Below the pieces are notes generated by a model. That model did no database searches. It saw only the letters and a program-made list of their open reading frames with translations, and was not told where the DNA came from. Both the position numbers and the translations under genes were made by a program. A stretch of 64,000 nt of DNA from Bacteroides sp. Lineage in GTDB: Bacteria; Bacteroidota; Bacteroidia; Bacteroidales; Muribaculaceae. The DNA lies in assembly GCA_014801485.1 (NCBI GenBank), contig JAAVEC010000019.1:2176-66175 (forward strand), written 5' to 3'. Every line of letters begins with the position of its first letter. Position 1 is the stretch's first letter. Of this stretch, positions 2,780-19,191 are shown piece by piece.

Positions 2780-2823
2780 GCAGGAGGTAGACGCCCCCGA
2801 GGCGTTTACCTCCTGCTTTTTTC
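2780..2823 (+). terminator. Rho-independent terminator after susD
   Basis: Stem gcaggaggtagacgcc / ggcgtttacctcctgc with a 5-nt loop, followed by a T run. Confidence 0.85.
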
Positions 2824-2958: not shown

Positions 2959-2966
2959 TACCTTTG
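2959..2966 (+). promoter_or_regulatory. Bacteroidetes sigma-A -7 element (TACCTTTG) for the peptidoglycan operon
   Basis: Matches TAnnTTTG in an AT-rich gap about 40 nt upstream of ATG 3005. Confidence 0.65.
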
Positions 2967-3004
2967 TAGGGTAGGGGCATATCATGTGTCTCTCGCAAGC
3001 TTTT

Positions 3005-5947
3005 ATGAAAAAAATATTAGTAGCTCTTTTTGCTCTCGGTGCCGTTGTTTCGGGCCGTGCAGCGCAGGCGGCTCCGGATAAGGCCGCAGTGGCTTCGGTC
3101 ATCAATGCTTATCTGCCCGGAAGTTCGGGTTTTGTGGTGAAAGTGGATAGCATCGACCTTGATGCTCGTGCCCGCAAGGCCACCGTATATTGCAACGAGG
3201 CGGCTTCGTATCTGTCGCTGGATGCGCTGCGCACGGCGGCTCTCACGGCTGAGGTGGGCAAGGCTCTGGGCGAAGATGCCAAGGGCTATAAGGTGGACGT
3301 GCGTGCCGCCGGCCACAGCCTCAACGATCTCGCCCGCTTTGCCTCGAAGGCTCCGGCTGCTCCGCGAGAGAAGCTCCCCTTCGTGGTGGACAAGAGCGCT
3401 CAGCCTGCCCCCAAGGGTCTTGACGGTGCCAATATTGCGCTGTGGCAGAGCCACGGCTGGTATTTCGAGCCCAAGCTCAACCGCTGGGAATGGCAGCGCG
3501 CGCGCATCTTCCAGACCGTGGAAGATCTCTACACGCAGAGCTACGTGATGCCCTTCCTGATGCCTATGCTGCGCAATGCCGGTGCCTACGTGATGAGTCC
3601 GCGCGAGCGCGACACAAATCTCACGGAGATTATCGTGGACAACGACGGCTCCTTCGCCCATCCCGGCTATAGCGACGATGCCGCCGCGTGGAGCGATGCC
3701 GGCGTGCCTGCCTTTGCATATCGCCGCGCCAAGCTGCGCAACGACGAGAATCCCTTCCGCGAGGGCACGGCCCGCAAGGCTACTACCGTGAAGCGTGCCG
3801 ACAAAGCCACCACCGCCCGCTGGAATGCCACTATCCCGACGGCCGATGACTATGCCGTGTACGTGAGCTACGCAGCCCTTCCCAATGCCACCACTGATGC
3901 CCGCTACACCGTGCTGGCAGCCGACGGCGAGCATGAATTCACCGTGAACCAGACCATGGGTGCCGGCACCTGGATCTATCTGGGCCACTTCCCACTGGAG
4001 GCCGGCGAGCAGACCGTGGTGGAGCTCTCCACTTTGGGCTCCAAGGCCGGACGCGCCATCAGCGCCGACGCCGTGAAGATAGGCGGCGGCATGGGCAACG
4101 TGGAGCGCATCGTGAAAGAACCGCTCGACAGCATCAACTACCGCTACGTGGGCAGCGGCTATCCTCGCTTCACCGAGGGCGCGCGCTACTTCCTGCAGTG
4201 GGCCGGAGCTCCCGACAGCGTGTACACGCCCAGCGGCAACGTGAACGACTACAACGACGACTACCGCAGCCGCGGCCTGTGGGTGAACTGGATGGCCGGC
4301 GGCTCGTCGATGCTTCCCGGCCGCGAAGGCCTGGGCGTGCCCATCGATCTGAGCTTTGCCTTCCACAGCGATGCCGGCACCACGCGTGACGACAGCATCA
4401 TCGGTACCCTGGGTATCTACAGCACTGCCAACGGCAAGCTGGGCAACGGCTCCACGGCCATGGCCTCGCGCGACTTCACCGACCTGGTGATGACCAACAT
4501 CGTGGATGATGTGCGCGCGCAATTCGAGCCCGCCTGGACCCGTCGCGGCATGTGGGACAAGAGCTACTTCGAGGCTCGCGTGCCCGCCGTGCCCGCAATG
4601 CTGCTGGAGCTGCTCTCGCACCAGAACTTCGCCGATATGAAATATGGCCTCGACCCCGAGTTCCGCTTCACCGTGAGCCGTGCTATATATAAAGGTATGC
4701 TTCAGTTCCTGGCCCACCGCGACGGACGCCCCTACGTGGTGCAGCCCCTTGCCCCCCGTGCGTTTGCCATCAGCACCACCGCCGAGGAAGGCCGGTATCG
4801 CCTCACCTGGGAGGCCACGCCCGACAGCCTTGAGGCCACGGCCATGCCGGCCTACTACCTGGTGCAGGAAACCATCAACAACAACGGCGCTTTCCGCACC
4901 ATCGCCAAGGTGACGGAGCCCGAATACGTATACGATGCCCCCGACTCGGCCATCCATTGCTTCCGCATCATTGCCGGTAACGACGGTGGTGTGAGCTTCC
5001 CCTCCGAGACCCTCGCGCTGCGCTACGACGAGAACGACGCGCAGCCCGTGCTGGTGGTGAACGGATTCACGCGCCTGAGCGCCCCCGACTGGTTTGACAG
5101 CGGCGAAATCGCCGGCTTCTACGACACTCGCGACCACGGCGTGCCCTATATCGAGGACATCAGCTTCATCGGCAGCCAGTTTGAATTCCGCCGCGACATC
5201 CCCTGGATGGACGACGACGCCGCAGGTTTCGGTGCTTCGCGTGCCGACTATGAGGACAAAGTGGTGGCCGGCAACACCTTCGACTATGTATATACCCACG
5301 GCGAAGCTATCTCGGCCGCCGGTCGCGGATTCATCAGCAGCAGCGTCGAGGCATTCTGCCGCAACGGCGCACAGCCCGGCCAGACCATAGACCTGATCCT
5401 GGGCAAGCAGAAGGAGACCGCCAAGGGCCGCGGCGTGTACGGCACCAAGTACAAGACCTTCCCGGCTGCCCTGCAGGAGCGCCTGCGCGAGGCCACGAAG
5501 GGCGGAAGCTCGGTGTTTGTGAGCGGCTCCTACGTGGCCACCGACCTCTGGGATAATCCCCACAGCAGCGCCGAAGTGGCCGAAGCCGACAAAGCCTTCG
5601 CCCGCGAAGTGCTGGGCTACAACTGGCGCGTGGGTCAGGCCACCGTCGAGGGCGGAGCCTATGAAGTGGACACCCGCTTCCCGGCCTTCACCGGCGGCAA
5701 CTACAGCTTTGCCCAGACGCTCAACAGCGACGTCTACGCCGTGGAGTCGCCCGACTCCTTCTTTGCCGCCGATCCCAAGCGCGGCTGCACCCTGATGCGC
5801 TACACCGAGAACAACCTCGTGGCCGGCATCGCCTTCCAGGGCGACGGCTACCGCACCGTGGTGCTGGGATTCCCCTTCGAGACCATCGACAGCATGGCTG
5901 CCCGTGAGGGTCTCATGAATCAGATTCTTAACTTCTTCAAGAAATAA
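3005..5947 (+). CDS. Secreted multidomain N-acetylmuramoyl-L-alanine amidase-like protein (Amidase_3 core, golvesin/Xly-like beta-sandwich, FN3); family often auto-annotated as xanthan lyase
   Basis: Signal peptide MKKILVALFALG; putative Zn ligands WQSHG…EDL, FAFHSDA and PAMLLE; inserted ARW…YAVYVSY…VNQ…GTWIYLGHF…ADAVKIG domain; FN3-like YRLTWEA…YYLV. Start chosen at the second Met. Confidence 0.75.
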   Translation: MKKILVALFALGAVVSGRAAQAAPDKAAVASVINAYLPGSSGFVVKVDSIDLDARARKATVYCNEAASYLSLDALRTAALTAEVGKALGEDAKGYKVDVRAAGHSLNDLARFASKAPAAPREKLPFVVDKSAQPAPKGLDGANIALWQSHGWYFEPKLNRWEWQRARIFQTVEDLYTQSYVMPFLMPMLRNAGAYVMSPRERDTNLTEIIVDNDGSFAHPGYSDDAAAWSDAGVPAFAYRRAKLRNDENPFREGTARKATTVKRADKATTARWNATIPTADDYAVYVSYAALPNATTDARYTVLAADGEHEFTVNQTMGAGTWIYLGHFPLEAGEQTVVELSTLGSKAGRAISADAVKIGGGMGNVERIVKEPLDSINYRYVGSGYPRFTEGARYFLQWAGAPDSVYTPSGNVNDYNDDYRSRGLWVNWMAGGSSMLPGREGLGVPIDLSFAFHSDAGTTRDDSIIGTLGIYSTANGKLGNGSTAMASRDFTDLVMTNIVDDVRAQFEPAWTRRGMWDKSYFEARVPAVPAMLLELLSHQNFADMKYGLDPEFRFTVSRAIYKGMLQFLAHRDGRPYVVQPLAPRAFAISTTAEEGRYRLTWEATPDSLEATAMPAYYLVQETINNNGAFRTIAKVTEPEYVYDAPDSAIHCFRIIAGNDGGVSFPSETLALRYDENDAQPVLVVNGFTRLSAPDWFDSGEIAGFYDTRDHGVPYIEDISFIGSQFEFRRDIPWMDDDAAGFGASRADYEDKVVAGNTFDYVYTHGEAISAAGRGFISSSVEAFCRNGAQPGQTIDLILGKQKETAKGRGVYGTKYKTFPAALQERLREATKGGSSVFVSGSYVATDLWDNPHSSAEVAEADKAFAREVLGYNWRVGQATVEGGAYEVDTRFPAFTGGNYSFAQTLNSDVYAVESPDSFFAADPKRGCTLMRYTENNLVAGIAFQGDGYRTVVLGFPFETIDSMAAREGLMNQILNFFKK

Positions 5948-5951
5948 TGCT

Positions 5952-7424
5952 ATGAAAGCAATCACCTGCTTCCTCCCCTATGCCGACGCAGCCCAGGTGC
6001 TGCCCACCATCGAGGCCCTCAAGGCCGAAAACGCCATCGCACGCATCTGCCTGCTCGCAGGCCCTGATGCCGACACCTCCGCCGTGCCCGCCGGCTGCGA
6101 CGTGGTGCCCGCCACCGATGGCCTCAACGCCTCCTCCACCATGCGCGCTATAGCCGAGGCCACCGACACGGAATTCATCCTCCTCTACACCAAATACAAC
6201 AAGCTCGTGCCCGGCTACCACGCCCTGGAGCGCCTGCTGCGCCTGGCCGCCGACAGCGGCGCCGGCATGCTCTATGCCGACAGCTATGCCGTGGATCCCG
6301 AGGGCAAGCGCACTGCGGCTCCCGTGATCGACTATCAGGAGGGTTCGCTGCGCGACGACTTCAACTTCGGCTCGCTCATGCTATTCTCGGCCGCAGTGTT
6401 CAAGCTGGCTGCCGCCGGCATCGACCGCGACTATAAGGCCGCCGGCCTCTACGACCTGCGCCTGCGCGTGAGCCGCATCGCCCCCATCGTGCACGTGAAT
6501 GAATATCTCTACACCGACGTGCAGCTCGACAACCGCCGCAGCGGCGAGAAAATCTTCGACTACGTGGACCCCAAGAACCGCGGCGTGCAGATTGAGATGG
6601 AGCAGGCATGCACAGAGCACCTCAAGGCCGTGGGCGGATACCTGGAGCCTGAGTTCGACAAAATCGAATTCGGCGCCGAGCAATTCCCCGTTGAGGCTAC
6701 GGTGGTAATCCCCGTGCGCAACCGCGTGCGCACCATCCGCGATGCCATCAACAGCGTGCTCTCGCAGAAGACCGATTTCCCCTTCAACCTCATCGTGGTC
6801 GACAATCACAGCACCGACGGCACCACCGAGGCCATCGACGAATTCACCGATCCCCGCGTGATCCACATCATCCCCGAGCGTGAAGACCTGGGCATAGGCG
6901 GCTGCTGGAACATGGCCGTGGACGATGCCCGATGCGGCAAATTCGCCGTCCAGCTCGACAGCGACGACGTCTACAGCGGCACCGACACTCTCCAGAAGAT
7001 CGTGAACGCCTTCTATGAGCAGAACTGCGGCATGGTGGTGGGCACCTATTGTCTCACCGACATTGACATGAACACCATTCCCCCCGGCATGATCGACCAC
7101 AAGGAATGGACCCCCGACAACGGCCGCAACAACGCCCTGCGCATCAACGGCCTGGGTGCACCGCGTGCATTCTACACGCCCATGCTGCGCGCCATCAAGG
7201 TGCCCAACACCAGCTACGGCGAAGACTATGCCCTGGGTCTGGCCTTCTCGCGCCACAACCAGATAGGCCGCATCTACGACGTGCTCTACTTCTGCCGCCG
7301 CTGGGAAGACAACAGCGATGCCGCCCTCGACATCAACAAGATGAACGCCAACAACCTCTACAAGGACCGCATCCGCACCTGGGAACTCCAGGCACGCAAG
7401 GCCCTGAACGCTCAGAAGAAATAA
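5952..7424 (+). CDS. GT2-family glycosyltransferase with an extra N-terminal GT-A-like domain
   Basis: C-terminal half has VVIPVRNR…VVDNHSTDGT…QLDSDD…GEDY; no signal peptide. Confidence 0.85.
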   Translation: MKAITCFLPYADAAQVLPTIEALKAENAIARICLLAGPDADTSAVPAGCDVVPATDGLNASSTMRAIAEATDTEFILLYTKYNKLVPGYHALERLLRLAADSGAGMLYADSYAVDPEGKRTAAPVIDYQEGSLRDDFNFGSLMLFSAAVFKLAAAGIDRDYKAAGLYDLRLRVSRIAPIVHVNEYLYTDVQLDNRRSGEKIFDYVDPKNRGVQIEMEQACTEHLKAVGGYLEPEFDKIEFGAEQFPVEATVVIPVRNRVRTIRDAINSVLSQKTDFPFNLIVVDNHSTDGTTEAIDEFTDPRVIHIIPEREDLGIGGCWNMAVDDARCGKFAVQLDSDDVYSGTDTLQKIVNAFYEQNCGMVVGTYCLTDIDMNTIPPGMIDHKEWTPDNGRNNALRINGLGAPRAFYTPMLRAIKVPNTSYGEDYALGLAFSRHNQIGRIYDVLYFCRRWEDNSDAALDINKMNANNLYKDRIRTWELQARKALNAQKK

Positions 7425-7425
7425 G

Positions 7426-8361
7426 ATGGCCGTAAATTCTGCTCAAATAGCCGATTTCCTTGCCGCCCAGTGCGCCGAGTGGCCCCTCGCGGCCCGCAAC
7501 TTCGGTGCCCTGGACGGCGTGGAAGTGCGCACCGTGGATATGCCCGGCTGGACGTTCAAGGTGCAGTTCAATCCCGCGCGCATCGTGAGCAGCGGCGCCA
7601 AGGTCGACGCCCGCTCGCTGGCCGAGCGCCCCTGCTTCCTATGCGATAAAAACCGCCCTGCCGAGCAGCGCGGAATAGAGTGGGGCGACTATACCATTCT
7701 GGTGAACCCCTTCCCCATCTTTCCGCGCCACCTCACCATCCCGGCCAACGACCACACGCCGCAGCGCATAGCCGGCCGCGTGGCCGACATGCTGCGCCTG
7801 GCCACGGAGCTGCAGGGCTACACCGTGTTCTACAACGGCCCGCGCTGCGGAGCCTCCGCTCCCGACCACATGCACTTCCAGGCCGGCAACAGCGATTTCC
7901 TCACCCTGGCCGAGGCCATCGACGGCGCAGAGCTGCGTCCCCTCGTGGTGGATGAGGATGGAGCCATGCTGGCCGTGGCCACGTCGTTGCCCCTGAACGT
8001 ATTCGTGATCGATGCACCCACGCCCGAAGCCGGCGCCGCACTCTTCGACCGCCTCTACGCAGCCATGCCCGTGCCCGAGGGCGAGGAAGAGCCCATGCTC
8101 AATCTCCTCGCCTACGCCACCGACGGCGAAGGCACGCGCCTGGTGGTGGTGCCCCGCAAGCGTCATCGCCCCAGCTTCTACGGCACCGAGGGCGAGGGCT
8201 GCATGCTCCTGAGCCCTGCCAGCGTGGATATGGGCGGAGCATTCATCACTCCCCGCCGCGAGGACTTCGACCGCATTGATGCCGAGGTGCTCACGCGCGT
8301 ATTCGACGAACTTTGTCTTTCCGACGACGAAATAAACAGCATAGCAGATAATGTGCAATAA
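7426..8361 (+). CDS. DUF4922 protein, HIT/GalT-like nucleotidyltransferase or phosphorylase
   Basis: QFNPARI, RPCFLC, LVNPFPIF and FYNGPRCGASAPDHMHFQ (HxHxQ motif). Confidence 0.8.
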   Translation: MAVNSAQIADFLAAQCAEWPLAARNFGALDGVEVRTVDMPGWTFKVQFNPARIVSSGAKVDARSLAERPCFLCDKNRPAEQRGIEWGDYTILVNPFPIFPRHLTIPANDHTPQRIAGRVADMLRLATELQGYTVFYNGPRCGASAPDHMHFQAGNSDFLTLAEAIDGAELRPLVVDEDGAMLAVATSLPLNVFVIDAPTPEAGAALFDRLYAAMPVPEGEEEPMLNLLAYATDGEGTRLVVVPRKRHRPSFYGTEGEGCMLLSPASVDMGGAFITPRREDFDRIDAEVLTRVFDELCLSDDEINSIADNVQ

Positions 8362-9637
8362 AGCTACAGAACGCCCCACGGTATCGGTGGGTATCATCAC
8401 AGCCCGGGCTGTGGATATAGTGTTTCACGGTGCCTTCTCAGCAAGCGACGGCAGCCGCGTGGAAGGTGCCATGCACTTCGAGGAACTTCCCGAAGCCATC
8501 GAATTCACTCCCTTGCAGCCCGATGCCCGCTTTGAGGTGAAAGACGTGGTTATAGGCGTGGACTTCCACTGGGAGCGCCGCGAGAATCAGGCCTTCGAGG
8601 GCAGCCTGCGGCTGAAGCCCTCGCAAGACGGTATTATAGTGATCAACGTGATCGACGTGGAGAGCTACCTGCGCAGCGTGATATCGTCGGAAATGAGCGC
8701 AACCTCCTCGCCTGCGCTTCTGCGTGCCCACGCAGTGATCTCGCGTAGCTGGCTGCTGGCCCAGATCGACAAAAACCGGCGCATATCCCAAGGCGACCAG
8801 AAGGCCTACGAAATGCTCGTGACCGATACAGAAATATGCACATGGCAGGACCGCGAAGACCACACGGAATTCGACGTGTGTGCCGACGACCATTGCCAGC
8901 GCTATCAGGGCGTGACGCGCCAGACCACTCCCGCCGTGGCCGAGGCCGTGGAAGCCACCTCCGGCATGGTGCTTCTCGACCCCGACACGCGCCTGCTGGC
9001 CGATGCCCGCTTCAGCAAGTGCTGCGGCGGCGTGTTTGAGCTCTTCGAGAATTGCTGGGAGCCCGTGCACCACAGCTATCTCACGGTGCGCAGCGACGCA
9101 CCGGATCCCCTGCTGTATCCCGACCTGCGTTACGAGCCCCGTGCGCGCGCCTGGATCGAGGCCTCGCCCGATGCTTTCTGCAACACCACCGACACCCGTG
9201 TGCTCTCGCAGGTGCTCAACAACTACGACCAGGAAACCACCGACTTCTACCGCTGGACCGTGCGCTACAGCGCCGAGGAGCTCACCGCCCTCGTGCTCAA
9301 GCGCACCGGCATCGACTTCGGCCTCATCACCGATATGGTGCCCGTGGAGCGCGGCACATCCGGCCGTATCGTGCGCCTGCGCATCGTGGGCACGCGTCGC
9401 ACCGTCACCCTGGGTAAAGAACTCACCATCCGCCACGCCCTCAGCACCAGCCATCTGCGCTCCTCGGCCTTCGTCGTAGACCGCGACGGCGACGACTTCG
9501 TGCTGCGCGGTGCCGGATGGGGCCACGGAGTGGGACTGTGCCAGATAGGCGCTGCCGTGATGGCCGACAAAGGCTACACCTGGCAGCAGATTCTGGCCCA
9601 CTACTTCCCCGGAGCTCTTATCGAGAAAAAGTATTAA
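8351..9637 (+). CDS. SpoIID/LytB-domain lytic transglycosylase-like protein
   Basis: ESYLRSVISSEM (catalytic Glu), ALLRAHAVISRS, CADDHCQRYQG and GAGWGHGVGLCQIGA…ILAHYFPG. Confidence 0.9.
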   Translation: MCNKATERPTVSVGIITARAVDIVFHGAFSASDGSRVEGAMHFEELPEAIEFTPLQPDARFEVKDVVIGVDFHWERRENQAFEGSLRLKPSQDGIIVINVIDVESYLRSVISSEMSATSSPALLRAHAVISRSWLLAQIDKNRRISQGDQKAYEMLVTDTEICTWQDREDHTEFDVCADDHCQRYQGVTRQTTPAVAEAVEATSGMVLLDPDTRLLADARFSKCCGGVFELFENCWEPVHHSYLTVRSDAPDPLLYPDLRYEPRARAWIEASPDAFCNTTDTRVLSQVLNNYDQETTDFYRWTVRYSAEELTALVLKRTGIDFGLITDMVPVERGTSGRIVRLRIVGTRRTVTLGKELTIRHALSTSHLRSSAFVVDRDGDDFVLRGAGWGHGVGLCQIGAAVMADKGYTWQQILAHYFPGALIEKKY

Positions 9638-9653
9638 TACCTTATAGAATATC

Positions 9654-11549
9654 ATGAACGCAAGTAAAAAAAGATCGCCCTGGGCATGGATTCCCACCCT
9701 GTACTTCGCGCAGGGACTGCCCTACGTGGCAGTGATGACCATCTCGGTGATCATGTATAAGCGCCTCGGTATCTCCAATACCGATATCGCGCTCTACACC
9801 GGATGGCTGTATCTCCCCTGGGTGATCAAGCCCTTCTGGAGCCCCTTCGTGGATATCATCCGCACCAAGCGCTGGTGGACCCTCACCATGCAGTGGATAA
9901 TAGCTTTCGCACTGGCCGGCATAGCATTCTCAATCCCCACGCCATTCTTCTTCCAGCTCACGCTGGCGATATTCTGGCTCGTGGGATTCACCTCGGCCAC
10001 GCACGATATCGCGGCCGACGGCTTCTATATGCTCGCCCTCACGGAGCATGAGCAGTCGCTCTACGTGGGTATCCGCTCCACGTTCTACCGCGTGAGCACC
10101 GTCGTGGGCCAGGGCCTGCTTGTGGTGCTCGCAGGCGCTATCGAGACCGGCACCGGCCTCGACGCCGTGAAGGTGGGCGTGGAAGTAGACCCCTATGTGG
10201 CCTGGGAGGCTCCCGTGATGGCCGATCTGGCCCTTCAGCAGCCTCAGGACGCAGCCGAGATGAACTTCTTCACCGGCGGCGATGTGGCCGCTGTGGCAGT
10301 GAAAGCGCCCGCCGAAGCCACCCTTGCCGACGGCACCACCGTGCCCTTCGGCACCTATGCCGCCGCAATGCGCGACTCGGTGCGCCGCAGCAACGAGCGC
10401 AACGGCTTCACCGCGGCAGCCGCTGCCGCCACCAATGCTCCCGCCGCAGCAGCCGCCGAGAGCGACGGCCCGGGCGCGTTCACCCGCTGGGTGGCAGCCA
10501 CCTTCGGCGAGCAGCGTGAGGCTTCCGGCGAGGCCGTGGCCAATACCTTTGCCATCCGTGGCGTGCGCCTCAACAAGAAGCCCGCGCCCGGCGAGACCGT
10601 GGTAGTGAACATGACCCACAACAGCGGCGACGCAGGCATCAAGCTCGTGGAAGGCGACCGCCTGGTGTTTGACGAAAACAACTGGGACCGCACCGCATGG
10701 CTCTACTACGATATCGACCACAAGATCAAGCAGCCCGTGAAGGCCGGCTTTGAAGGCGCCAGCGGCAATATCCCCATGGCGTGGCTCGTGGTCTTCGCCG
10801 TGCTTTCGGCCTTCTTCCTGGCCGTGGCCATGTACCACAGCTGGGCGCTTCCGCGCCCCGAGAGCGACCGACGCGATGCAGCCACCCGCACCGGTGCAGA
10901 TATATTCCGCGAATTCTTCGACACCTTCCGCAGCTTCTTCGCCAAGAAGCAGATATGGGTGGCCGTGGCCTTCATGCTTCTCTACCGCCTGCCCGAGGCG
11001 CAGCTGGTGAAGCTCATCAACCCCTTCCTGCTCGATCCCATCGACAAGGGAGGCCTGGGTCTCAGCACAGGCGAAGTGGGCTTCGTTTACGGCACCGTGG
11101 GAATCATAGGTCTCACCATCGGCGGTATCGTGGGTGGTATTGTGGCTGCCCGCGGCGGCCTCAAGAAGTGGCTCTGGCCCATGGCCTGGAGCATGTCGCT
11201 CACCTGCCTCACATTCGTCTACCTCAGCTATTGGCCCACCCATTCGCTCGTAACCATCAACATCTGCGTGTTTATCGAGCAGTTTGGCTACGGCTTCGGC
11301 TTCACTGCCTATATGCTCTATCTCATCTACTTCAGCGAGGGCGAGCACAAGACGGCCCACTATGCCATCTGCACGGGCTTCATGGCCCTGGGCATGATGC
11401 TGCCGGGCATGGCCGCCGGCTGGCTGCAGGAGACTATCGGCTACCGCCACTTCTTTGTGTGGACTATGATCTGCTGCGCAGCCACCATCGGTGTGTGTGC
11501 CTTCCTCAAGATCGACCCCAATTTCGGACGTAAAATAGAAAAAGAATAA
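9654..11549 (+). CDS. ampG: AmpG-family muropeptide MFS permease with a large extracytoplasmic insertion
   Basis: LYFAQGLP, LPWVIKPFWSPFVD and SATHDIAADG motifs; hydrophobic helices flank an about 200-aa soluble insert. Confidence 0.9.
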   Translation: MNASKKRSPWAWIPTLYFAQGLPYVAVMTISVIMYKRLGISNTDIALYTGWLYLPWVIKPFWSPFVDIIRTKRWWTLTMQWIIAFALAGIAFSIPTPFFFQLTLAIFWLVGFTSATHDIAADGFYMLALTEHEQSLYVGIRSTFYRVSTVVGQGLLVVLAGAIETGTGLDAVKVGVEVDPYVAWEAPVMADLALQQPQDAAEMNFFTGGDVAAVAVKAPAEATLADGTTVPFGTYAAAMRDSVRRSNERNGFTAAAAAATNAPAAAAAESDGPGAFTRWVAATFGEQREASGEAVANTFAIRGVRLNKKPAPGETVVVNMTHNSGDAGIKLVEGDRLVFDENNWDRTAWLYYDIDHKIKQPVKAGFEGASGNIPMAWLVVFAVLSAFFLAVAMYHSWALPRPESDRRDAATRTGADIFREFFDTFRSFFAKKQIWVAVAFMLLYRLPEAQLVKLINPFLLDPIDKGGLGLSTGEVGFVYGTVGIIGLTIGGIVGGIVAARGGLKKWLWPMAWSMSLTCLTFVYLSYWPTHSLVTINICVFIEQFGYGFGFTAYMLYLIYFSEGEHKTAHYAICTGFMALGMMLPGMAAGWLQETIGYRHFFVWTMICCAATIGVCAFLKIDPNFGRKIEKE

Positions 11550-12781
11550 TGAAAAAATCAATCATACTGGGCCTGGCTGCCGCCATGGCCCTCGGCGCCG
11601 CCGCGCAGGTGAAACCCGGCGTGGAAGTGCTGCGCGACCGCGGCTTCGACATCCTTCAGGGCAAGCGTGTGGGCCTTATCACCAATCCCTCCGGAGTAGA
11701 CAATAAGCTGCAGAGCACCATCGACATCCTGCACTCGGCTCCCGGCGTGGAGCTCAGGGCCCTCTATGGCCCGGAGCACGGCGTGCGCGGCGATGTTCAT
11801 GCCGGCGACCACGTGGACAACGCTGTGGATCCCGCCACGGGCGTGACCATGTTCTCCATCTACGGCAAGTACCGCAAGCCCACCCCCGAGATGCTCGACA
11901 GCATCGACGTGCTCGTCTACGACATCCAGGACAACGGCTGCCGCTCTTTCACTTTCATCTCCACCATGGGCCTGGCCATGGAGGCCTGTGCCGAACTGGG
12001 CAAGGACTTCGTGGTGCTCGACCGTCCCAATCCCGCCGGCGCCAATAAAATCGAGGGCTGCATCGTGGAAGACAGCTGCTTCTCCTTCGTGAGCCAGTTC
12101 CCCATTCCTTATCTCTATGGCCTCACCCCCGGCGAGCTCGCCACCTACCTGAACGAGGAAGGCCTGCTGCCCGACGGCCGCAAGGTGAACCTCACCGTGG
12201 TGCCCATGGAGGGCTACGACCGTAGCATGACCTTCGGCGACACCGGTATGCCCTGGGTGCTTCCCTCGCCCCATCAGCCCAATGCCGAGTCGGCTCTCTA
12301 CTATCCCGCCACTGGCATCCTGGGCGAGCTCTACTACGTCAATATCGGCGTGGGCTACACGCTGCCCTTCAAGCTCGTGGCCGCCGACTGGATTGATGCT
12401 GCCGAACTGAGCCGCCGCCTCAACGGTCTGGACATCCCCGGCGTGATGTTCCGCCCCATCCATATCAAGCCTTTCTACAGCACCGGCAAGGACCAGAACC
12501 TGCAGGGTGTGGAAATCTACGTGACCGATGCGCAGGCTGCCCCTCTCACGCTCATCCAGTTCTACGTGCTTCAGGAACTGGCCGATATGTATCCTGATCG
12601 TCGCGTGATGGATGCCGAGGATGCCGCCAAGCGCTTTGGAATGTTCGACAAGGTCGTGGGCAGCAAGAATATCCGCAGTCTTTTCACCCCGCGCCACCGC
12701 GTGGAGGATATGATCGACTACTGGAATAAGGACGTGGAGCCCTTCCGCGCCGCTTCGTCGAAGTATTATCTTTATAAGTAA
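11549..12781 (+). CDS. namZ: Exo-beta-N-acetylmuramidase NamZ (DUF1343/YbbC, GH171)
   Basis: Signal peptide; GKRVGLITNPSG, YGPEHGVRG, YDIQDNGCRSFTFISTM, VLDRPNP and WVLPSPH motifs. Confidence 0.92.
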   Translation: MKKSIILGLAAAMALGAAAQVKPGVEVLRDRGFDILQGKRVGLITNPSGVDNKLQSTIDILHSAPGVELRALYGPEHGVRGDVHAGDHVDNAVDPATGVTMFSIYGKYRKPTPEMLDSIDVLVYDIQDNGCRSFTFISTMGLAMEACAELGKDFVVLDRPNPAGANKIEGCIVEDSCFSFVSQFPIPYLYGLTPGELATYLNEEGLLPDGRKVNLTVVPMEGYDRSMTFGDTGMPWVLPSPHQPNAESALYYPATGILGELYYVNIGVGYTLPFKLVAADWIDAAELSRRLNGLDIPGVMFRPIHIKPFYSTGKDQNLQGVEIYVTDAQAAPLTLIQFYVLQELADMYPDRRVMDAEDAAKRFGMFDKVVGSKNIRSLFTPRHRVEDMIDYWNKDVEPFRAASSKYYLYK

Positions 12782-12792
12782 AGGAGGCGTCT

Positions 12793-15630
12793 ATGCCAGG
12801 AATAGACGGCCTGCACAAGCAATTTGCAAAAGCCCTTGAGGCGCTTGACCCGCGCCCCGAGGTGTATACCGATCGCCTGCGACGCCTCGCGTGGGGCACC
12901 GACGCCGGATTCTACCGCCTTGTGCCTCAGCTCGTGGTGCGTAGCTCCGGCGAGGAGCAGGTGAGCGCCATCCTGCACACGGCGTCGTCGATGGGTGTAC
13001 CCGTGACGTTCCGCGCCGCCGGCACCAGCCTCAGCGGCCAGGCTATCACCGACTCTGTGCTGCTCGTGGCCGGCAAGAACTGGGAGGGCTACACTATTGG
13101 TCCGGACGCTGCCACCATCACCCTGCAGCCGGGTATCGTGGGCGAGCGTGTGAACGAGATTCTCAAGCCCTACGGCCGCAAATTCGATCCCGATCCCGCC
13201 TCGAAGCGCTCTGCTATGGTGGGCGGTATCGTGGCCAATAACGCCTCGGGCATGAACTGCGGCACCCACGCCAATAGCGACAGTGTGCTCATCTCGGTCC
13301 GCATCGTGCTGGCCGACGGCACCGTGCTCGACACTGCAGATGAAGTGAGCCGCGCCGCGTTCCGTGCCTCACACGCCGCGCTTCTGGCCGAAATTGAGGC
13401 CATCCGCGACGAAATACGCGCCGATGCCGAACTGGCCGCACGCATCCGTCGCAAGTACAGCATCAAGAACGTGACGGGCCTGAACCTGCGCCCATTCATC
13501 ACCTACGACGACCCCTTCGATATCATCGCCCACTGCCTCGTGGGCAGCGAAGGCACGCTTGCTTTCCTCAGCTCCGTGACGATGAGCACCTCGCCCATCA
13601 AGCCCTGTGCCGCAAGCGCAATGCTCTACTTCGGCAGCATGCGCGAGGCAGCGGAAGCTGTGGTGGCGATGCGCAAGGGCGCTCCGGTCGACAGCTGCGA
13701 GCTCCTTGACGCCAAGTCGCTGGCCAGCGTGGGCACGCCCGGCGTGCATCCCGGCCTTACGGCTCTGCTGCTCGACACCAAGGCCGATACTCCCGAGGGC
13801 CTGCAGAGCAACATCGACCGAATCATGGAGGTGGTGAACGGCTTCAAGCTCGTGGGCGAAGCCCACTTCTCCACCGACCCGGCCGAAACCGCATCGTGGT
13901 GGAGCATGCGCAGCGGCGTATTCCCTGCCGTGGGAGGCACCCGCCCCATCGGCACCACCGTGCTCATCGAAGACGTTGCTTTCCATATCGACGACCTCCC
14001 GGCCGCCACCGTGGAGCTGGCCAAGCTCATCGAAGACTGCGGCTATGACGACGCCTGCATATATGGCCACGCACTGGAAGGCAACTTCCACTTCGTGATA
14101 TCCCAGAGCTTCGACACGCCTGCCCAGGTGGAGCGCTACCGCCGCCTGATGAAGGGCGTGGAGCAACTCGTGGTCGACCGCTACGACGGCTCGCTCAAGG
14201 CCGAGCACGGCACCGGCCGCAATATGGCACCCTTTGTCGAAAAAGAGTGGGGAGCCAAGGCCTTTGGATTCATGAAACGCCTGAAGGCGGCCATGGACCC
14301 GCAGGGCATCCTCAATCCGGGCGTGATTTTCAACGACGACCCCGAGTGCTTCATCAAGAATATCAAGCCGCTGCCGCGCGTGGACGAAACCGTGGACCGC
14401 TGTATAGAATGCGGTTTCTGCGAGGTCAATTGCGTGAGCTGCGGTCTCACCCTCTCGGCTCGCCAGCGCATTGTGTCGCAGCGCGAGATAGTGCGCCTCA
14501 AGGGACTCGACACCCCCGAAGGGGCAGCTGCGGCAGCCGAGCTGGAGCATGCATTCAAATACTACGGCGTCGATACCTGCGCCGGCGACGGCCTGTGCAG
14601 CACATCGTGCCCCATGCGCATCAACACCGGCGACCTCGTGCACAAGCTGCGCGAGCGTGCCTTGCCTCCGGGCTCGGCCGGCTACCGCATCGGTGTGTTT
14701 GCCGCGCGCCATCTGGGAGGCATCAGCAAGGGCTTGCGCGCCACGCTGGCCACGGCACGGATAGCCCACGACGTCTTGGGCGACAAAGCCACGGATGCCG
14801 TGGGTCGCGCTCTGCACAGCGTGGGATTCCCGCTCTGGACCTCGGCGCTGCCCGGCCCGTCGCATCCGTCCCGCGATAAGGCCGAAGCCGCCGCTCTGCA
14901 CCACGGTGTGCGCAAGGTTGTCTATTTCCCCTCGTGCCTCAACCGCGCTTTCGGTGCCACCCCGGAAGGCGGCAAGAAGGTGCCGGAGCTCATGGAGGTG
15001 ATATCGCGTCTCTGCGCCCGTGCAGGCTACGAAGTGGTGTTCCCGGCCGATATGAGCGGCCTGTGCTGCGGCCTCACGTGGGAAAGCAAGGGTATGCCGG
15101 CCGAGGCCGATGCCAAGCTCGCGCAGCTCGAAGAGGCCTTGTGGAAGGCTTCGGAGCAGGGCAAGTATCCTGTGCTCTGCGACCAGAGTCCCTGCCTGCA
15201 TCGCATGCGCGAGCACATCACGCGCATGAAGCTCTACGAGCCTGCCGAGTTTATCCACGATTTCCTGGCTCCGCATCTGGAGTTTGAGCCTGTGGATACA
15301 CCGGTGGCCGTGCACGTCACCTGCTCTACGCGCCGCATGGGCCTTGCCGACAAAATTATTTCGCTGGCACGCATGTGCTCGCGCAATGTCACGGTTCCTG
15401 CCGAGGTGGGCTGCTGCGGCTTTGCCGGCGACAAAGGCTTCACTTTCCCGGAACTCAACCGCTGGGGGTTGCGCAAGCTGCGCCCGGCCATCGAGGCTGC
15501 CGGAGTGAAGGAGGGCTATTCCAATTCGCGCACTTGCGAGATAGGCCTCACTTCCAACAGCGGCGTGCCCTACAAATCAATTGCTTACCTCGTGCTTTCG
15601 TGCACTACTCCAAAATCCGATAAAGAATGA
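12793..15630 (+). CDS. FAD- and Fe-S-dependent (quinone-linked) D-lactate dehydrogenase, Dld-II type
   Basis: FRAAGTSLSGQA (FAD_binding_4), GHALEGNFHF, LKAEHGTGRNMAPF, CIECGFCEVNC, CAGDGLCSTSCP and two CCG domains. Confidence 0.85.
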   Translation: MPGIDGLHKQFAKALEALDPRPEVYTDRLRRLAWGTDAGFYRLVPQLVVRSSGEEQVSAILHTASSMGVPVTFRAAGTSLSGQAITDSVLLVAGKNWEGYTIGPDAATITLQPGIVGERVNEILKPYGRKFDPDPASKRSAMVGGIVANNASGMNCGTHANSDSVLISVRIVLADGTVLDTADEVSRAAFRASHAALLAEIEAIRDEIRADAELAARIRRKYSIKNVTGLNLRPFITYDDPFDIIAHCLVGSEGTLAFLSSVTMSTSPIKPCAASAMLYFGSMREAAEAVVAMRKGAPVDSCELLDAKSLASVGTPGVHPGLTALLLDTKADTPEGLQSNIDRIMEVVNGFKLVGEAHFSTDPAETASWWSMRSGVFPAVGGTRPIGTTVLIEDVAFHIDDLPAATVELAKLIEDCGYDDACIYGHALEGNFHFVISQSFDTPAQVERYRRLMKGVEQLVVDRYDGSLKAEHGTGRNMAPFVEKEWGAKAFGFMKRLKAAMDPQGILNPGVIFNDDPECFIKNIKPLPRVDETVDRCIECGFCEVNCVSCGLTLSARQRIVSQREIVRLKGLDTPEGAAAAAELEHAFKYYGVDTCAGDGLCSTSCPMRINTGDLVHKLRERALPPGSAGYRIGVFAARHLGGISKGLRATLATARIAHDVLGDKATDAVGRALHSVGFPLWTSALPGPSHPSRDKAEAAALHHGVRKVVYFPSCLNRAFGATPEGGKKVPELMEVISRLCARAGYEVVFPADMSGLCCGLTWESKGMPAEADAKLAQLEEALWKASEQGKYPVLCDQSPCLHRMREHITRMKLYEPAEFIHDFLAPHLEFEPVDTPVAVHVTCSTRRMGLADKIISLARMCSRNVTVPAEVGCCGFAGDKGFTFPELNRWGLRKLRPAIEAAGVKEGYSNSRTCEIGLTSNSGVPYKSIAYLVLSCTTPKSDKE

Positions 15631-16793
15631 CTGCAAAATCAAGCGGCTCGCGCCTGCTCGCTCTCGATATCCTGCGTGGTATCACCATAGCAGGTATGAT
15701 TCTGGTGAATAACCCGGGATCGTGGGGCCACATCTATGCTCCTCTGCGCCACGCCGAGTGGCACGGCCTCACGCCCACCGACCTGGTGTTTCCCTTCTTC
15801 ATGTTCATCATGGGTGTGAGCACATATATGTCGCTGCGGAAGTACGACTTCAAGCTCTCGTGGCCGGCGTTCCGCAAGATAATCAAGCGCACCGTGCTGA
15901 TATTCTTCATCGGATGGGTGCTCACGTGGCTGGCAGGCACGCTGCGCCGCTGGAGCGGCGACTACAGCTTTGTCGAGGCCGCGTGGAACTTTGAAAACAT
16001 GCGCCTGCTGGGCGTGCTGCCGCGTCTTGCTATTTGTTATGGCGTGGGTGCCACTCTGGCACTCGCTCTGGGCCGCAAGGCTCTGGCATGGACAGTGGCC
16101 GGAATCCTGGTGGCCTACACCATCCTGATGCTTGGCTTCAACGGCCTTGTGTTCAGTGAGGATAATATCATTGGCGTGGTGGACCGCGCCGTGCTGGGAG
16201 TGAACCACATGTATGCCGAGACAATCGACGGCGTCACCATCAAGTTTGATCCCGAGGGCCTGCTCAGCACCATTCCGAGCATTGCCCACATGCTCATCGG
16301 CTTCCTGTGTGGCTCGATGCTCATGGCCGTGACCGACAACCGCGACCGCATCAACCGCCTCTTCATTCTGGGCACTATCCTCACCTTCGCCGGCCTTCTG
16401 CTCAGCTACGGTATGCCCATCAACAAGAAGATATGGAGCCCCACTTTCGTGCTCACCACCTGCGGCCTGGCTTCCAGCCTCCTGGGTCTGCTCATCTGGA
16501 TTATCGACATGCGAGGCCATCGCCGCTGGTGCCGCTTCTTCCAGGTGTTCGGCGTGAATCCGCTGTTTTTGTTCTGCCTCGGCTCGATCGGCGGCGTGAT
16601 TCTGAGCGTGGTGCGCTTCGGCTACGATGGCGGCACGATTTCCATCCACAACTGGTATTATCGCGTGGTGTGCATCGGCGTGGCCGGCGGAGACGCCGTG
16701 CTGGGCTCGCTGCTCTATGCCCTGAGCTATATTGCCCTGGTGTGGTTTTTCGGATATATTCTCTTTAAGAAAAAAATATATATTAAGATATGA
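15627..16793 (+). CDS. murT: HGSNAT/NagX-family membrane protein (MurT-like)
   Basis: RLLALDILRGITIAGMILVNNPG, HAEWHGLTPTDLVFPFF, DPEGLLST and PINKKIWSPTF; lies directly upstream of murK-murQ. Confidence 0.8.
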   Translation: MTAKSSGSRLLALDILRGITIAGMILVNNPGSWGHIYAPLRHAEWHGLTPTDLVFPFFMFIMGVSTYMSLRKYDFKLSWPAFRKIIKRTVLIFFIGWVLTWLAGTLRRWSGDYSFVEAAWNFENMRLLGVLPRLAICYGVGATLALALGRKALAWTVAGILVAYTILMLGFNGLVFSEDNIIGVVDRAVLGVNHMYAETIDGVTIKFDPEGLLSTIPSIAHMLIGFLCGSMLMAVTDNRDRINRLFILGTILTFAGLLLSYGMPINKKIWSPTFVLTTCGLASSLLGLLIWIIDMRGHRRWCRFFQVFGVNPLFLFCLGSIGGVILSVVRFGYDGGTISIHNWYYRVVCIGVAGGDAVLGSLLYALSYIALVWFFGYILFKKKIYIKI

Positions 16794-17632
16794 TACTGAT
16801 TGCAGACTGCGGAAGCACCAAGATAGACTGGTGTGTTGTCCGCCAAGGAAAGGTTGAGAAACAGGTATTCACCTGTGGCATGAACGCCGTGATGCTCACC
16901 GAAGACGAAATGCGCGAGCGCATCGCCGCCGAGCTTGTGCCCGAACTGGCCGACCGCGCCGCCTCCATCAAGGCCGTGTATTTCTACGGCGCCGGATGCA
17001 TATCGCCGGAGGTGTGCGGCAACGTAGAGCGCGCCATCCGTGCCAATATCCCCGCTGCCACGGTGGAAGTGCACACCGATCTGCTCGCCGCCGCCCGTGC
17101 CCTCTGCGGCCGCAAGCCCGGCATCGCCTGCATCCTGGGCACCGGCTCCAATTCATGCTTCTATGATGGCGAGGCGATTGCCCGCAACGTGTCGCCCCTG
17201 GGATATATTCTGGGCGATGAAGGCTCCGGCGCCGTGCTGGGCAAGCTCCTCGTGGGCGATGTGCTCAAGGGGCAGTTGCCTCAGGAGCTATGCGACAAGT
17301 TCCTGAAGAAGTACGACCTCACGCTGCTCGACATCATCCGCCGCGTCTATAAGGAACCGCAGGGCAACCGCTTCCTGGCCTCTCTCACACCCTTCCTCAT
17401 CGAAAATATCAAGGAACCTGCCATCCACGCTCTGGTGATGCGCTCGTTCGGCGCCTTCTTCACGCGCAACATCTCGCACTACGACGGCATGTGCGAGCCG
17501 GTGGTCAACTTCATCGGCTCCATCGCTTTCTACTATCGCGACGTGCTCGAAGAGGCAGCCCGCGAGTGTGGCTACACCGTGGGCACCGTGCTCAAGAGCC
17601 CCATGGAAGGTCTCATCAGTTTCCACTCCTAA
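16790..17632 (+). CDS. murK: MurNAc kinase (BadF/BadG sugar-kinase family)
   Basis: LIADCGSTK, FYGAGC, ILGTGSNS and GYILGDEGSG; adjacent to murQ. Confidence 0.85.
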   Translation: MILIADCGSTKIDWCVVRQGKVEKQVFTCGMNAVMLTEDEMRERIAAELVPELADRAASIKAVYFYGAGCISPEVCGNVERAIRANIPAATVEVHTDLLAAARALCGRKPGIACILGTGSNSCFYDGEAIARNVSPLGYILGDEGSGAVLGKLLVGDVLKGQLPQELCDKFLKKYDLTLLDIIRRVYKEPQGNRFLASLTPFLIENIKEPAIHALVMRSFGAFFTRNISHYDGMCEPVVNFIGSIAFYYRDVLEEAARECGYTVGTVLKSPMEGLISFHS

Positions 17633-17644
17633 TTCCACCACATC

Positions 17645-18466
17645 ATGGCATTCGTAAAGATTTCCGAACAACCCTCTCTCTACAACGACCTGGAGAAAAA
17701 AAGCATCAGCGAAATCCTCCACGACATAAACAACGAAGATAAGAAAGTGGCACTGGCCGTCGAGAAGGCCATCCCGCAGATCGAAAAGCTCGTAGAAGGC
17801 ATCGTAAGCCGCATGAAGCGCGGCGGACGCATATTCTACATGGGCGCCGGCACCTCCGGCCGCCTGGGCGTACTCGACGCTTCCGAGATTCCTCCCACCT
17901 TCGGCATGGACCCATCATGGGTGATCGGCCTCATCGCCGGCGGCGACACCGCCCTGCGCAATCCCGTGGAGAACGCCGAAGACGACACCAAGCAGGGATG
18001 GCTCGACCTGCAGCAGTTTGGCATCAACGACCGCGACACCGTGATTGGCATCGCAGCCTCCGGCACCACGCCCTACGTGATTGGCGCGCTTGAGGAATGC
18101 CGCCGCCACGGCATCCTCACGGCCGCAATCACATCCAACCCCGATGCTCCCATCAGCCACGCCGCCGATATTGCTATCGAGATGGTGGTGGGTCCGGAAT
18201 ACGTCACCGGCAGCTCGCGCATGAAGAGCGGCACAGGCCAGAAGATGATCTGCAACATGATCACCACCTCGGTGATGATCCAGATGGGCCGCGTGAAAGG
18301 CAACAAGATGGTGAACATGCAGCTGAGCAACGCCAAGCTCGTCGACCGCGGCACGCGCATGGTGGTGGAAGAGCTGGGCCTGCCCTACGACGAGGCCAAG
18401 CGCCTGCTGCTCATGCACGGCTCCGTAAAGAAAGCTGTCGACGCCTATCGCGAGGGTCATGAATAA
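17645..18466 (+). CDS. murQ: N-acetylmuramic acid 6-phosphate etherase
   Basis: GAGTSGRLGVLDASEIPPTFG, GIAASGTTPYV, GPEYVTGSSRMKSGT and NAKLVDRG. Confidence 0.97.
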   Translation: MAFVKISEQPSLYNDLEKKSISEILHDINNEDKKVALAVEKAIPQIEKLVEGIVSRMKRGGRIFYMGAGTSGRLGVLDASEIPPTFGMDPSWVIGLIAGGDTALRNPVENAEDDTKQGWLDLQQFGINDRDTVIGIAASGTTPYVIGALEECRRHGILTAAITSNPDAPISHAADIAIEMVVGPEYVTGSSRMKSGTGQKMICNMITTSVMIQMGRVKGNKMVNMQLSNAKLVDRGTRMVVEELGLPYDEAKRLLLMHGSVKKAVDAYREGHE

Positions 18467-19118
18467 GTATCTCTCTGCTGCAATCCTTGCCGTGGCAGCT
18501 ATGGTGGCGGCTCCTGAAGCCGAGGCCCACAACGAGCTCTGGGGCCAGCGCGCGTCGCTCTTTGAAATGCTGGGCACCGACAGCACCAGCATCGTTTTCC
18601 TGGGCAACAGCCTCACCCACGGCTGCGAATGGCACGAACTGCTTCAGAATCCGCGCGTGCTCAACCGTGGCATCAACGGCGATATCGTGCAAGGCCTGCG
18701 CGACCGTCTGCCATCCGTCACCGCAGGCAAGCCGGCCAAGATTTTCCTGCTGTGCGGCGTGAACGATATCAGCCACGACCTCACGGCCGACAGCATCGCC
18801 ACTGCCCTGGGCGAACTCATCGCCGAGATTCGCACCTCAACTCCCGAGACGCGCCTCTACGTGCAGTCGCTCCTGCCCATCAACAATTCCTTCGGCCGCT
18901 ATAAGGCCGTATTCGGTAAAGAGCAGACTATCCGCGATGTCAACGCGCTCCTTCGCCCCATTGTGGAGCAGGCCGGAGCCACTTGGGTCGACATTCACAC
19001 CCTCTTCGCCGATGAAGATGGCAACCTGCGGGCCGACCTCACCAACGACGGACTGCATCTCCTCGCCCCGGGCTACATCATCTGGCGCGACGCCATCAAG
19101 CCCTACGTGGACGAGTAA
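18459..19118 (+). CDS. Secreted SGNH/GDSL esterase (O-acetylesterase-like)
   Basis: Signal peptide; blocks FLGNSLT, NRGINGD, CGVND and DGLH; start overlaps the murQ stop. Confidence 0.88.
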   Translation: MNKYLSAAILAVAAMVAAPEAEAHNELWGQRASLFEMLGTDSTSIVFLGNSLTHGCEWHELLQNPRVLNRGINGDIVQGLRDRLPSVTAGKPAKIFLLCGVNDISHDLTADSIATALGELIAEIRTSTPETRLYVQSLLPINNSFGRYKAVFGKEQTIRDVNALLRPIVEQAGATWVDIHTLFADEDGNLRADLTNDGLHLLAPGYIIWRDAIKPYVDE

Positions 19119-19143: not shown

Positions 19144-19191
19144 TAACAGCAGCAGGTCTTGCCCCTCGGGGCAAGACCTGCCTTGCTGTTA
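19144..19191 (+). terminator. Long hairpin terminator closing the operon
   Basis: Stem gcaggtcttgcccc / ggggcaagacctgc extended by taacagca / tgctgtta. Confidence 0.75.

Follow-up and report, generated by a model that had tools for sequence, protein, structure and literature searches.

The window analyzed here is a stretch of 64,000 nucleotides from a Bacteroides sp. metagenome-assembled genome (MAG) of the family Muribaculaceae (assembly GCA_014801485.1, contig JAAVEC010000019.1). It carries an operon for the breakdown of N-acetylmuramic acid (MurNAc), and inside this operon an open reading frame (ORF) of 945 aa at 12793-15630 (+) encodes a predicted flavin- and iron-sulfur-containing dehydrogenase of the Dld-II type. 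The same operon encodes MurQ, the etherase that releases D-lactate from MurNAc-6-phosphate. Our analysis makes it likely that the dehydrogenase is a cytoplasmic enzyme that oxidizes this MurQ-derived D-lactate to pyruvate, the electrons probably going to menaquinone. A first-pass annotation of the same DNA had interpreted the locus in this way; the interpretation is supported overall, and every part of it that was open to checking held.

The dehydrogenase gene is tightly packed between its neighbors. An 11-nt spacer (12782-12792) separates the ORF of NamZ (11549-12781) from the dehydrogenase start, and the dehydrogenase ORF shares its last 4 nt with the beginning of the next ORF (15627-16793), at the position of MurT. 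Both the gap and the overlap, as given in the first-pass annotation, were reproduced from the ORF coordinates. The spacer reads AGGAGGCGTCT and contains a Shine-Dalgarno-like AGGAGG, which is uncommon for Bacteroidetes. The operon comprises 11 genes on the + strand (2984-19118) with junctions of -11 to +16 nt; its features are listed below, Tanf numbers denoting the gene at the same position in the operon of Tannerella forsythia.

2780-2816 (+): strong hairpin terminator (16-bp stem and T-run); closes the upstream SusC/SusD unit and forms the upstream boundary of the operon
2959-2966 (+): -7 promoter box of the Bacteroidetes type, TACCTTTG, with AT-rich DNA ahead of it; distance to the ATG at 2984, 18 nt
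2984-5947 (+): first gene, 987 aa, Golvesin_C domain; position of Tanf_08345 ('xanthan lyase')
5952-7424 (+): family-2 glycosyltransferase (GT2); position of Tanf_08350
7426-8361 (+): DUF4922 protein; position of Tanf_08355
8351-9637 (+): SpoIID/LytB-domain protein; position of Tanf_08360 (lytB)
9654-11549 (+): AmpG-family muropeptide permease of the major facilitator superfamily (MFS), 631 aa (TIGR00901 8.5e-48, below cut-off)
11549-12781 (+): NamZ exo-beta-N-acetylmuramidase (NamZ_N 1.3e-78, NamZ_C 1e-36)
12793-15630 (+): Dld-II-type dehydrogenase, FAD / 2x[4Fe-4S] / 2xCCG, predicted D-lactate substrate
15627-16793 (+): MurT-position membrane protein, DUF5009/NagX-like, by domain matches and colinearity with the T. 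forsythia operon
16790-17632 (+): MurK-type MurNAc kinase (PDB 8oqw/8ow9, E ~1e-95)
17645-18466 (+): MurQ, MurNAc-6-phosphate etherase, D-lactate-releasing; equivalog cut-off exceeded (TIGR00274 306.2 bits against 302; NF003915 372.7 against 168)
18459-19118 (+): SGNH/GDSL esterase, final gene of the unit
19152-19181 (+): hairpin terminator (13-bp stem); closes the operon

A hairpin scan within 2984-19118 found no strong internal terminator. Scanning with a sigma-70 promoter model, which is ill-suited to Bacteroidetes, gave 8 predictions against 5.3 expected in shuffles and hence no excess; the promoter box was sought as TAnnTTTG instead. Judged by this layout, we infer that the dehydrogenase is co-transcribed with namZ and murTKQ. 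Directly upstream lies a SusD-family gene (1026-2747), and the open frame preceding it is probably the end of SusC. Although this SusC/SusD uptake pair is next to the operon, it is probably a separate transcript because a strong terminator stands between the two.

Protein architecture and active site

In a single chain, the dehydrogenase matches the Pfam families FAD_binding_4 (3.6e-31) and FAD-oxidase_C (1.4e-45), both above their gathering scores, a 4Fe-4S dicluster (Fer4_8, 1.5e-7, 32.3 bits against a cut-off of 27; Fer4_17, 7.8e-6) and CCG (8.2e-6, 26.3 bits against a cut-off of 20.6). These domains equal the Dld-II set given in the literature (PF01565, PF02913, PF13183 and the CCG family PF02754; PMC4481167), which bears out the earlier description of the protein as a Dld-II-type FAD/4Fe-4S/CCG enzyme. 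The dicluster is laid out as CxxCxxCxxxC at 537-547 followed by C596, C602 and C606-P, and its cysteines (537, 540, 543, 547, 596, 602 and 606) are kept in at least 97% of 126 relatives. The same level of conservation applies to cysteines 715, 758, 759, 801, 844, 862, 874, 875 and 915 of the CCG domains, where both CCG motifs (758-760 and 874-876) are flanked by conserved cysteines. Conserved cysteines at two [4Fe-4S] sites and two CCG domains argue for electron transfer from FAD through Fe-S to an external acceptor. On domain architecture and active-site residues, the protein is most likely an NAD-independent, Dld-II-type Fe-S D-lactate dehydrogenase (D-iLDH).

The sequence was checked for a transmembrane helix and a signal peptide and neither was found, which would place the dehydrogenase in the same compartment as the D-lactate production by MurQ; the enzyme is probably cytoplasmic and membrane-peripheral. 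One copy of the gene was found in the genome, a 1.93-Mb Muribaculaceae MAG that is 72% complete. The gene is intact and, with a dN/dS of 0.08 against its closest relative, is by this measure under purifying selection.

The AlphaFold model of the dehydrogenase (pLDDT 90) finds its best structural match in mouse LDHD with bound D-lactate (TM-score 0.89), followed by a D-lactate dehydrogenase from the crustacean Porcellio and then by LctD and D2HGDH. A sequence search ranks D-lactate dehydrogenases, LctD and D2HGDH in the same order; a PDB sequence search with the C-terminal half (residues 520-945) returned no match. In LDHD, Arg347, His398, His405, Glu442 and His443 bind the metal as well as the carboxylate and 2-hydroxyl groups (PMC10589216). 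The corresponding residues in the dehydrogenase are R373, H426, H433, E471 and H472, and none of them varies across 126 sequences. A small, hydrophobic pocket for the side chain is formed by F377, I392 and V435 with a small residue at 390; this last position, equivalent to Ala363 of LDHD, is V, C, A or S across relatives and never Tyr. The pocket has neither the polar T/N/K of D2HGDH nor the Tyr by which GlcD, with its shallow pocket, is confined to glycolate.

Among NCBIfam models the best matches are GlcD, YdiJ and GlpC, all sub-threshold. An identity as YdiJ (NF049975) was rejected at 137.7 bits against a cut-off of 1350, the match covering the N-terminal half only and the identity to E. 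coli YdiJ being 24%; an identity as GlcD (TIGR00387) was likewise rejected, at 172.3 bits against 567.9 and with no Tyr at position 390. Neighbors in the ESM Atlas have the same architecture and carry the automatic name 'D-lactate dehydrogenase (cytochrome)', which we take as a lead only. Fold and sequence ranking, catalytic residues, pocket, distance from YdiJ and a pairing with the lactate permease LctP (see below) together point to D-lactate as the substrate. D-lactate, released via MurQ, is also the sole 2-hydroxy acid from peptidoglycan breakdown according to Jaeger 2005, as cited in later literature.

Conservation and genomic context

A survey of 101 Muribaculaceae genomes, searched with both the dehydrogenase and MurQ, found both genes in 53, the dehydrogenase only in 1, murQ only in 1 and neither in 46 (3 of these 46 carry a paralogue of the dehydrogenase with 36-38% identity). 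In the single genome with the dehydrogenase only, which is 81% complete, a contig edge truncates the gene. Of the 53 genomes with both genes, 47 have them on one contig and one strand at a distance of 2.0-3.3 kb, the space that MurT and MurK would require; in the remaining 6 they are on different contigs, several at contig ends. The lone genome with murQ and no dehydrogenase (locus L135, genome G054) has MurK-MurQ only; within 8 kb of that pair no further gene of the operon was found.

The arrangement extends to named species. The order NamZ-DLD-MurT-MurK-MurQ (DLD denoting the dehydrogenase) occurs in 67 of the best 80 loci from named reference genomes, with an estimated median gap of about 20 nt on each side of the dehydrogenase; among the carriers of the full arrangement are Bacteroides intestinalis, B. 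muris, B. propionicigenes, Mediterranea massiliensis and Sodaliphilus. Of 301 Bacteroidales genomes sampled, 33 have an orthologue, and murQ is present in 28 of these 33 as compared with 38 of the 268 without one. Co-occurrence with murQ, named in the first-pass annotation as a check on its reading, is thus seen in 53 of 54 carriers within the Muribaculaceae and 28 of 33 within the Bacteroidales. Nor is the position of the gene unique to this strain, the finding which that annotation had said would speak against it: it is conserved in Muribaculaceae, Bacteroidaceae and other Bacteroidales families. Co-occurrence and linkage are reported here as plain counts, since the related genomes are not independent of one another.

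Orthologues with 42-57% identity often adjoin NamZ, AmpG, GT2, MurT, MurK or MurQ in varied and partly divergent layouts. These include NamZ-DLD, DLD-MurT, AmpG-DLD-MurK-MurQ and SpoIID-AmpG-X-MR/MLE-DLD on one strand, and, with DLD transcribed divergently, DLD against NamZ-GT2-DUF4922-SpoIID-AmpG and DLD against MurK-MurQ. A Pfam tally of the neighbors of 20 orthologues unlinked to murQ showed no single recurrent family; the proximity of distant orthologues to peptidoglycan genes emerged only from a targeted search for the peptidoglycan genes of the window. No peptidoglycan gene lies nearby in 29 of 127 classed orthologue loci. In a tree of 70 sequences, rooted with E. coli YdiJ as the sole characterized sequence included, the full-operon forms fall into one clade (99% support), and forms adjacent to peptidoglycan genes also occur in two deeper clades. 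That this proximity persists through rearrangement is good evidence for a functional link between the dehydrogenase and peptidoglycan salvage.

Beyond the full operon, a variant cluster runs NamZ-like (32-34% identity)-GT2-DUF4922-SpoIID-short MFS-DLD-MurK-like, without MurT or MurQ. It was seen at four loci (L083, 1905-11760; L070; L077; L080) in Bacteroides/Mediterranea MAGs and looks derived, since it is nested among operon-type Bacteroidaceae in the tree. One of the four genomes has murQ, on another contig. In Coprobacter secundus the dehydrogenase gene stands by itself behind an MFS transporter, and murQ is found at another site. Furthermore, a DLD orthologue with 46% identity forms a two-gene unit with the lactate permease LctP, whose gene it follows after a 5-nt gap (L103, 5953-10492; L131), and murQ was not found in the genus that carries this unit. 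LctP itself was found in only 2 of the 101 Muribaculaceae, and both of these are without the operon-form dehydrogenase. That operon-type Muribaculaceae are without the usual lactate importer fits an internal source of D-lactate.

Two further observations concern individual loci. At L107 (5980-14698, genome G368), SpoIID, AmpG, a 508-aa protein, an MR/MLE-family enzyme and DLD follow one another on a single strand, and murQ lies 12 kb off. An L-Ala-D/L-Glu epimerase is a possible identity for the MR/MLE enzyme, and the dehydrogenase may here be tied also to genes for stem-peptide salvage.

The dehydrogenase of the window is 64-67% identical to those of four genomes labeled as the 'same genus' (G011, G042, G070 and G094), for which MurQ is 85-93% identical; on MAG contigs L013 and L014 it is 92% and 78% identical. 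The window has about 60-64% G+C at the dehydrogenase, and its sequence shares a long tree branch with those of L013 and L014. The divergence from the 'same genus' genomes suggests a compositional shift or a broad genus.

Proposed pathway and alternative explanations

MurNAc catabolism follows an established order of steps, into which the dehydrogenase would fit as follows. NamZ would release MurNAc, MurT or AmpG would import it, MurK would phosphorylate it and MurQ would split off D-lactate from MurNAc-6-phosphate; the dehydrogenase, made from the same transcript, would then oxidize this D-lactate to pyruvate. At a metal-assisted active site like that of LDHD, the hydride would pass to FAD, and the electrons would leave FAD over a pair of [4Fe-4S] clusters and the CCG domains, with menaquinone as their most likely acceptor. 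From menaquinol they would reach fumarate reductase or cytochrome bd. A quinone is the probable acceptor; the genome encodes a FrdA/SdhA flavoprotein (872 bits) and cytochrome bd (CydA), which would serve as sinks for menaquinol from the dehydrogenase. The outcome would be the capture of all MurNAc carbon plus the reducing power of the lactyl group. In Corynebacterium glutamicum engineered for growth on MurNAc via MurQ, lactate accumulates, and the authors suggest an extra dld as a remedy (PMC6165865), a physiological precedent in favor of this pathway.

Several points weigh against oxidation of MurQ-derived D-lactate as the role of the enzyme. In three of the four MAGs with the variant cluster (all Bacteroides) murQ was not found genome-wide, so that the enzyme is kept without a detected source of D-lactate. 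Tannerella-type operons function without the dehydrogenase gene. Related genomes are not independent samples, and at the level of the phylum murQ is so widespread (282 of 401 genomes) that co-occurrence is uninformative; outside the Bacteroidales, both genes lie within 6 kb in 1 genome (G791). Stereospecificity also varies within the family: the Dld-II-type orthologue Cj1585c of Campylobacter jejuni is reported to be an L-lactate dehydrogenase, and HP1222 of Helicobacter pylori contributes to L-lactate oxidation (PMC4117512). A corresponding L-specificity of the enzyme in the window, which would leave it without action on the MurQ product, nevertheless appears barely credible, since its modeled active-site geometry and residues match those of the strictly D-specific LDHD and the operon would make no substrate for an L-specific enzyme. 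Rather unlikely, too, is a general dehydrogenase for D-lactate or small D-2-hydroxyacids that serves exogenous or methylglyoxal-derived D-lactate and owes its place in the operon to convenient co-regulation. Such a role would suit the many Bacteroidales orthologues that stand alone or by unrelated genes (the 29 of 127 loci mentioned above), the LctP-paired orthologue in genomes without murQ, the three MAGs just described and the several small hydrophobic D-2-hydroxyacids accepted by LDHD-type pockets (PMC10589216). It is at odds with the Muribaculaceae, where no orthologue was found without murQ save the one truncated by a contig edge and where LctP is absent from all sampled operon-type genomes, and with the recurrence of proximity to peptidoglycan salvage genes in different arrangements in three tree clades.

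A different substrate for the same architecture, be it glycolate (as a GlcD-GlcF-like fusion), D-2-hydroxyglutarate (YdiJ-like) or D-malate, is very unlikely. GlcD, YdiJ and GlpC are the top NCBIfam matches and E. coli YdiJ shares the domain order, but the scores are far under the cut-offs (172 against 568 and 138 against 1350), the 24% identity to YdiJ covers the N-terminal half alone and the pocket is hydrophobic, unlike that of D2HGDH, and without the Tyr of GlcD. Peptidoglycan breakdown is not known to give glycolate or 2-hydroxyglutarate. We also give very little credence to an enzyme that oxidizes C2 of the lactyl ether in MurNAc or MurNAc-6-phosphate, so that a hemiketal would decay to pyruvate and GlcNAc(-6P) (N-acetylglucosamine or its 6-phosphate) and the dehydrogenase would be an alternative or back-up to MurQ. 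Clusters with AmpG and a MurK-like kinase and without MurT or MurQ, in genomes where murQ was not found, would agree with this, and other flavoenzymes of the VAO family act on ethers, AGPS being among the structural matches. The small LDHD-like pocket, together with a catalytic His and a metal site that imply a free 2-hydroxyl, speaks against it, as do the retention of both murQ and the dehydrogenase in most genomes and the pairing with LctP, which indicates free lactate. A still wider idea, in which the lactyl group is a deliberate donor for menaquinone-dependent fumarate or low-oxygen respiration, the enzyme links the foraging of gut Bacteroidales on foreign cell wall to this respiration and MurQ-less lineages might cleave the ether oxidatively to GlcNAc and pyruvate, is highly speculative.

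The oxidation of MurQ-derived D-lactate by the dehydrogenase would have consequences for how this pathway is viewed. Descriptions of MurNAc catabolism stop at GlcNAc-6P and D-lactate and leave the further use of D-lactate to housekeeping enzymes encoded at unlinked loci. A large proportion of gut Bacteroidales, among them much of the Muribaculaceae and several Bacteroides species, encode a predicted D-lactate oxidizer within the operon itself, which argues for the use of cell wall as food and electron source beyond recycling. Such use is relevant to gut cross-feeding and to how peptidoglycan fragments and D-lactate turn over there. It also gives a functional context to the widespread Bacteroidales 'FAD-binding and (Fe-S)-binding domain-containing protein'. 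Cultured carriers of the operon exist, e.g. Bacteroides intestinalis.

Comparison with known systems

By architecture the dehydrogenase resembles the Dld-II enzymes SO1521 of Shewanella oneidensis (Pinchuk 2009), Pseudomonas putida D-iLDH and HP1222: all are NAD-independent and combine FAD_binding_4, FAD-oxidase_C, a 4Fe-4S dicluster and two CCG domains in one chain of about 930-950 aa. The known members are found in lactate-utilization loci with a lactate permease or LldR-type regulators, whereas the one in the window belongs to a cell-wall sugar operon. Its host is also different, an anaerobic gut member of the Bacteroidales in which menaquinone, leading to fumarate reductase or cytochrome bd, is the likely acceptor; for the multidomain Fe-S D-iLDH of P. 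putida, the title of Jiang 2017 names quinone as the acceptor. Mammalian mitochondrial LDHD (PDB 8jdc-8jdy; PMC10589216) has a fold like that of the N-terminal 515 residues (TM-score 0.89), identical metal-binding and catalytic residues and an equally hydrophobic side-chain pocket. It differs by lacking the Fe-S/CCG extension, by using another electron acceptor and by an identity of only about 22% to the enzyme of the window. YdiJ and GlcDEF are built from the same FAD, Fe-S and CCG parts, fused in YdiJ and split in GlcD/GlcF, but the pocket residues of YdiJ and GlcD differ from those of the dehydrogenase and their NCBIfam cut-offs are not reached.

The closest characterized counterpart of the operon is the peptidoglycan-scavenging unit of T. 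forsythia, ampG-namZ1-murT-murK-murQ (PMC5388701, PMC5790795, PMC10465942). Tanf_08345-08385 were found to form one transcript by reverse transcription PCR, and their transcription starts 17 bp ahead of the first gene (PMC5388701). The two operons share the order 'xanthan lyase'-like protein, GT2, DUF4922, LytB/SpoIID, AmpG, NamZ, MurT, MurK and MurQ. In T. forsythia, MurT (Tanf_08375) comes immediately after NamZ (Tanf_08370, 'ybbC'), with no dehydrogenase in between (PMC5388701), whereas in the window the 945-aa dehydrogenase stands between them as the sole gene inserted into this colinear order; the window unit further differs by its terminal SGNH esterase and the SusC/SusD pair upstream. 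Among the loci studied, the dehydrogenase-free form, with NamZ abutting MurT, was seen in 2 genomes, namely at L137 (Tannerella-type, a 3.40-Mb single contig) and L141. The suggestion in the first-pass annotation that the characterized murTKQ cluster is without this gene holds for the T. forsythia operon, and L137 is alike. A search of the literature found no publication connecting a D-lactate dehydrogenase with the murQ/MurNAc clusters of the Bacteroidales. Enzyme type and operon are each known, and their combination is not in the literature searched and is absent from the one characterized operon. In comparison with these known systems, the operon with its dehydrogenase is not a new kind of system but a widely conserved and testable extension of MurNAc catabolism.

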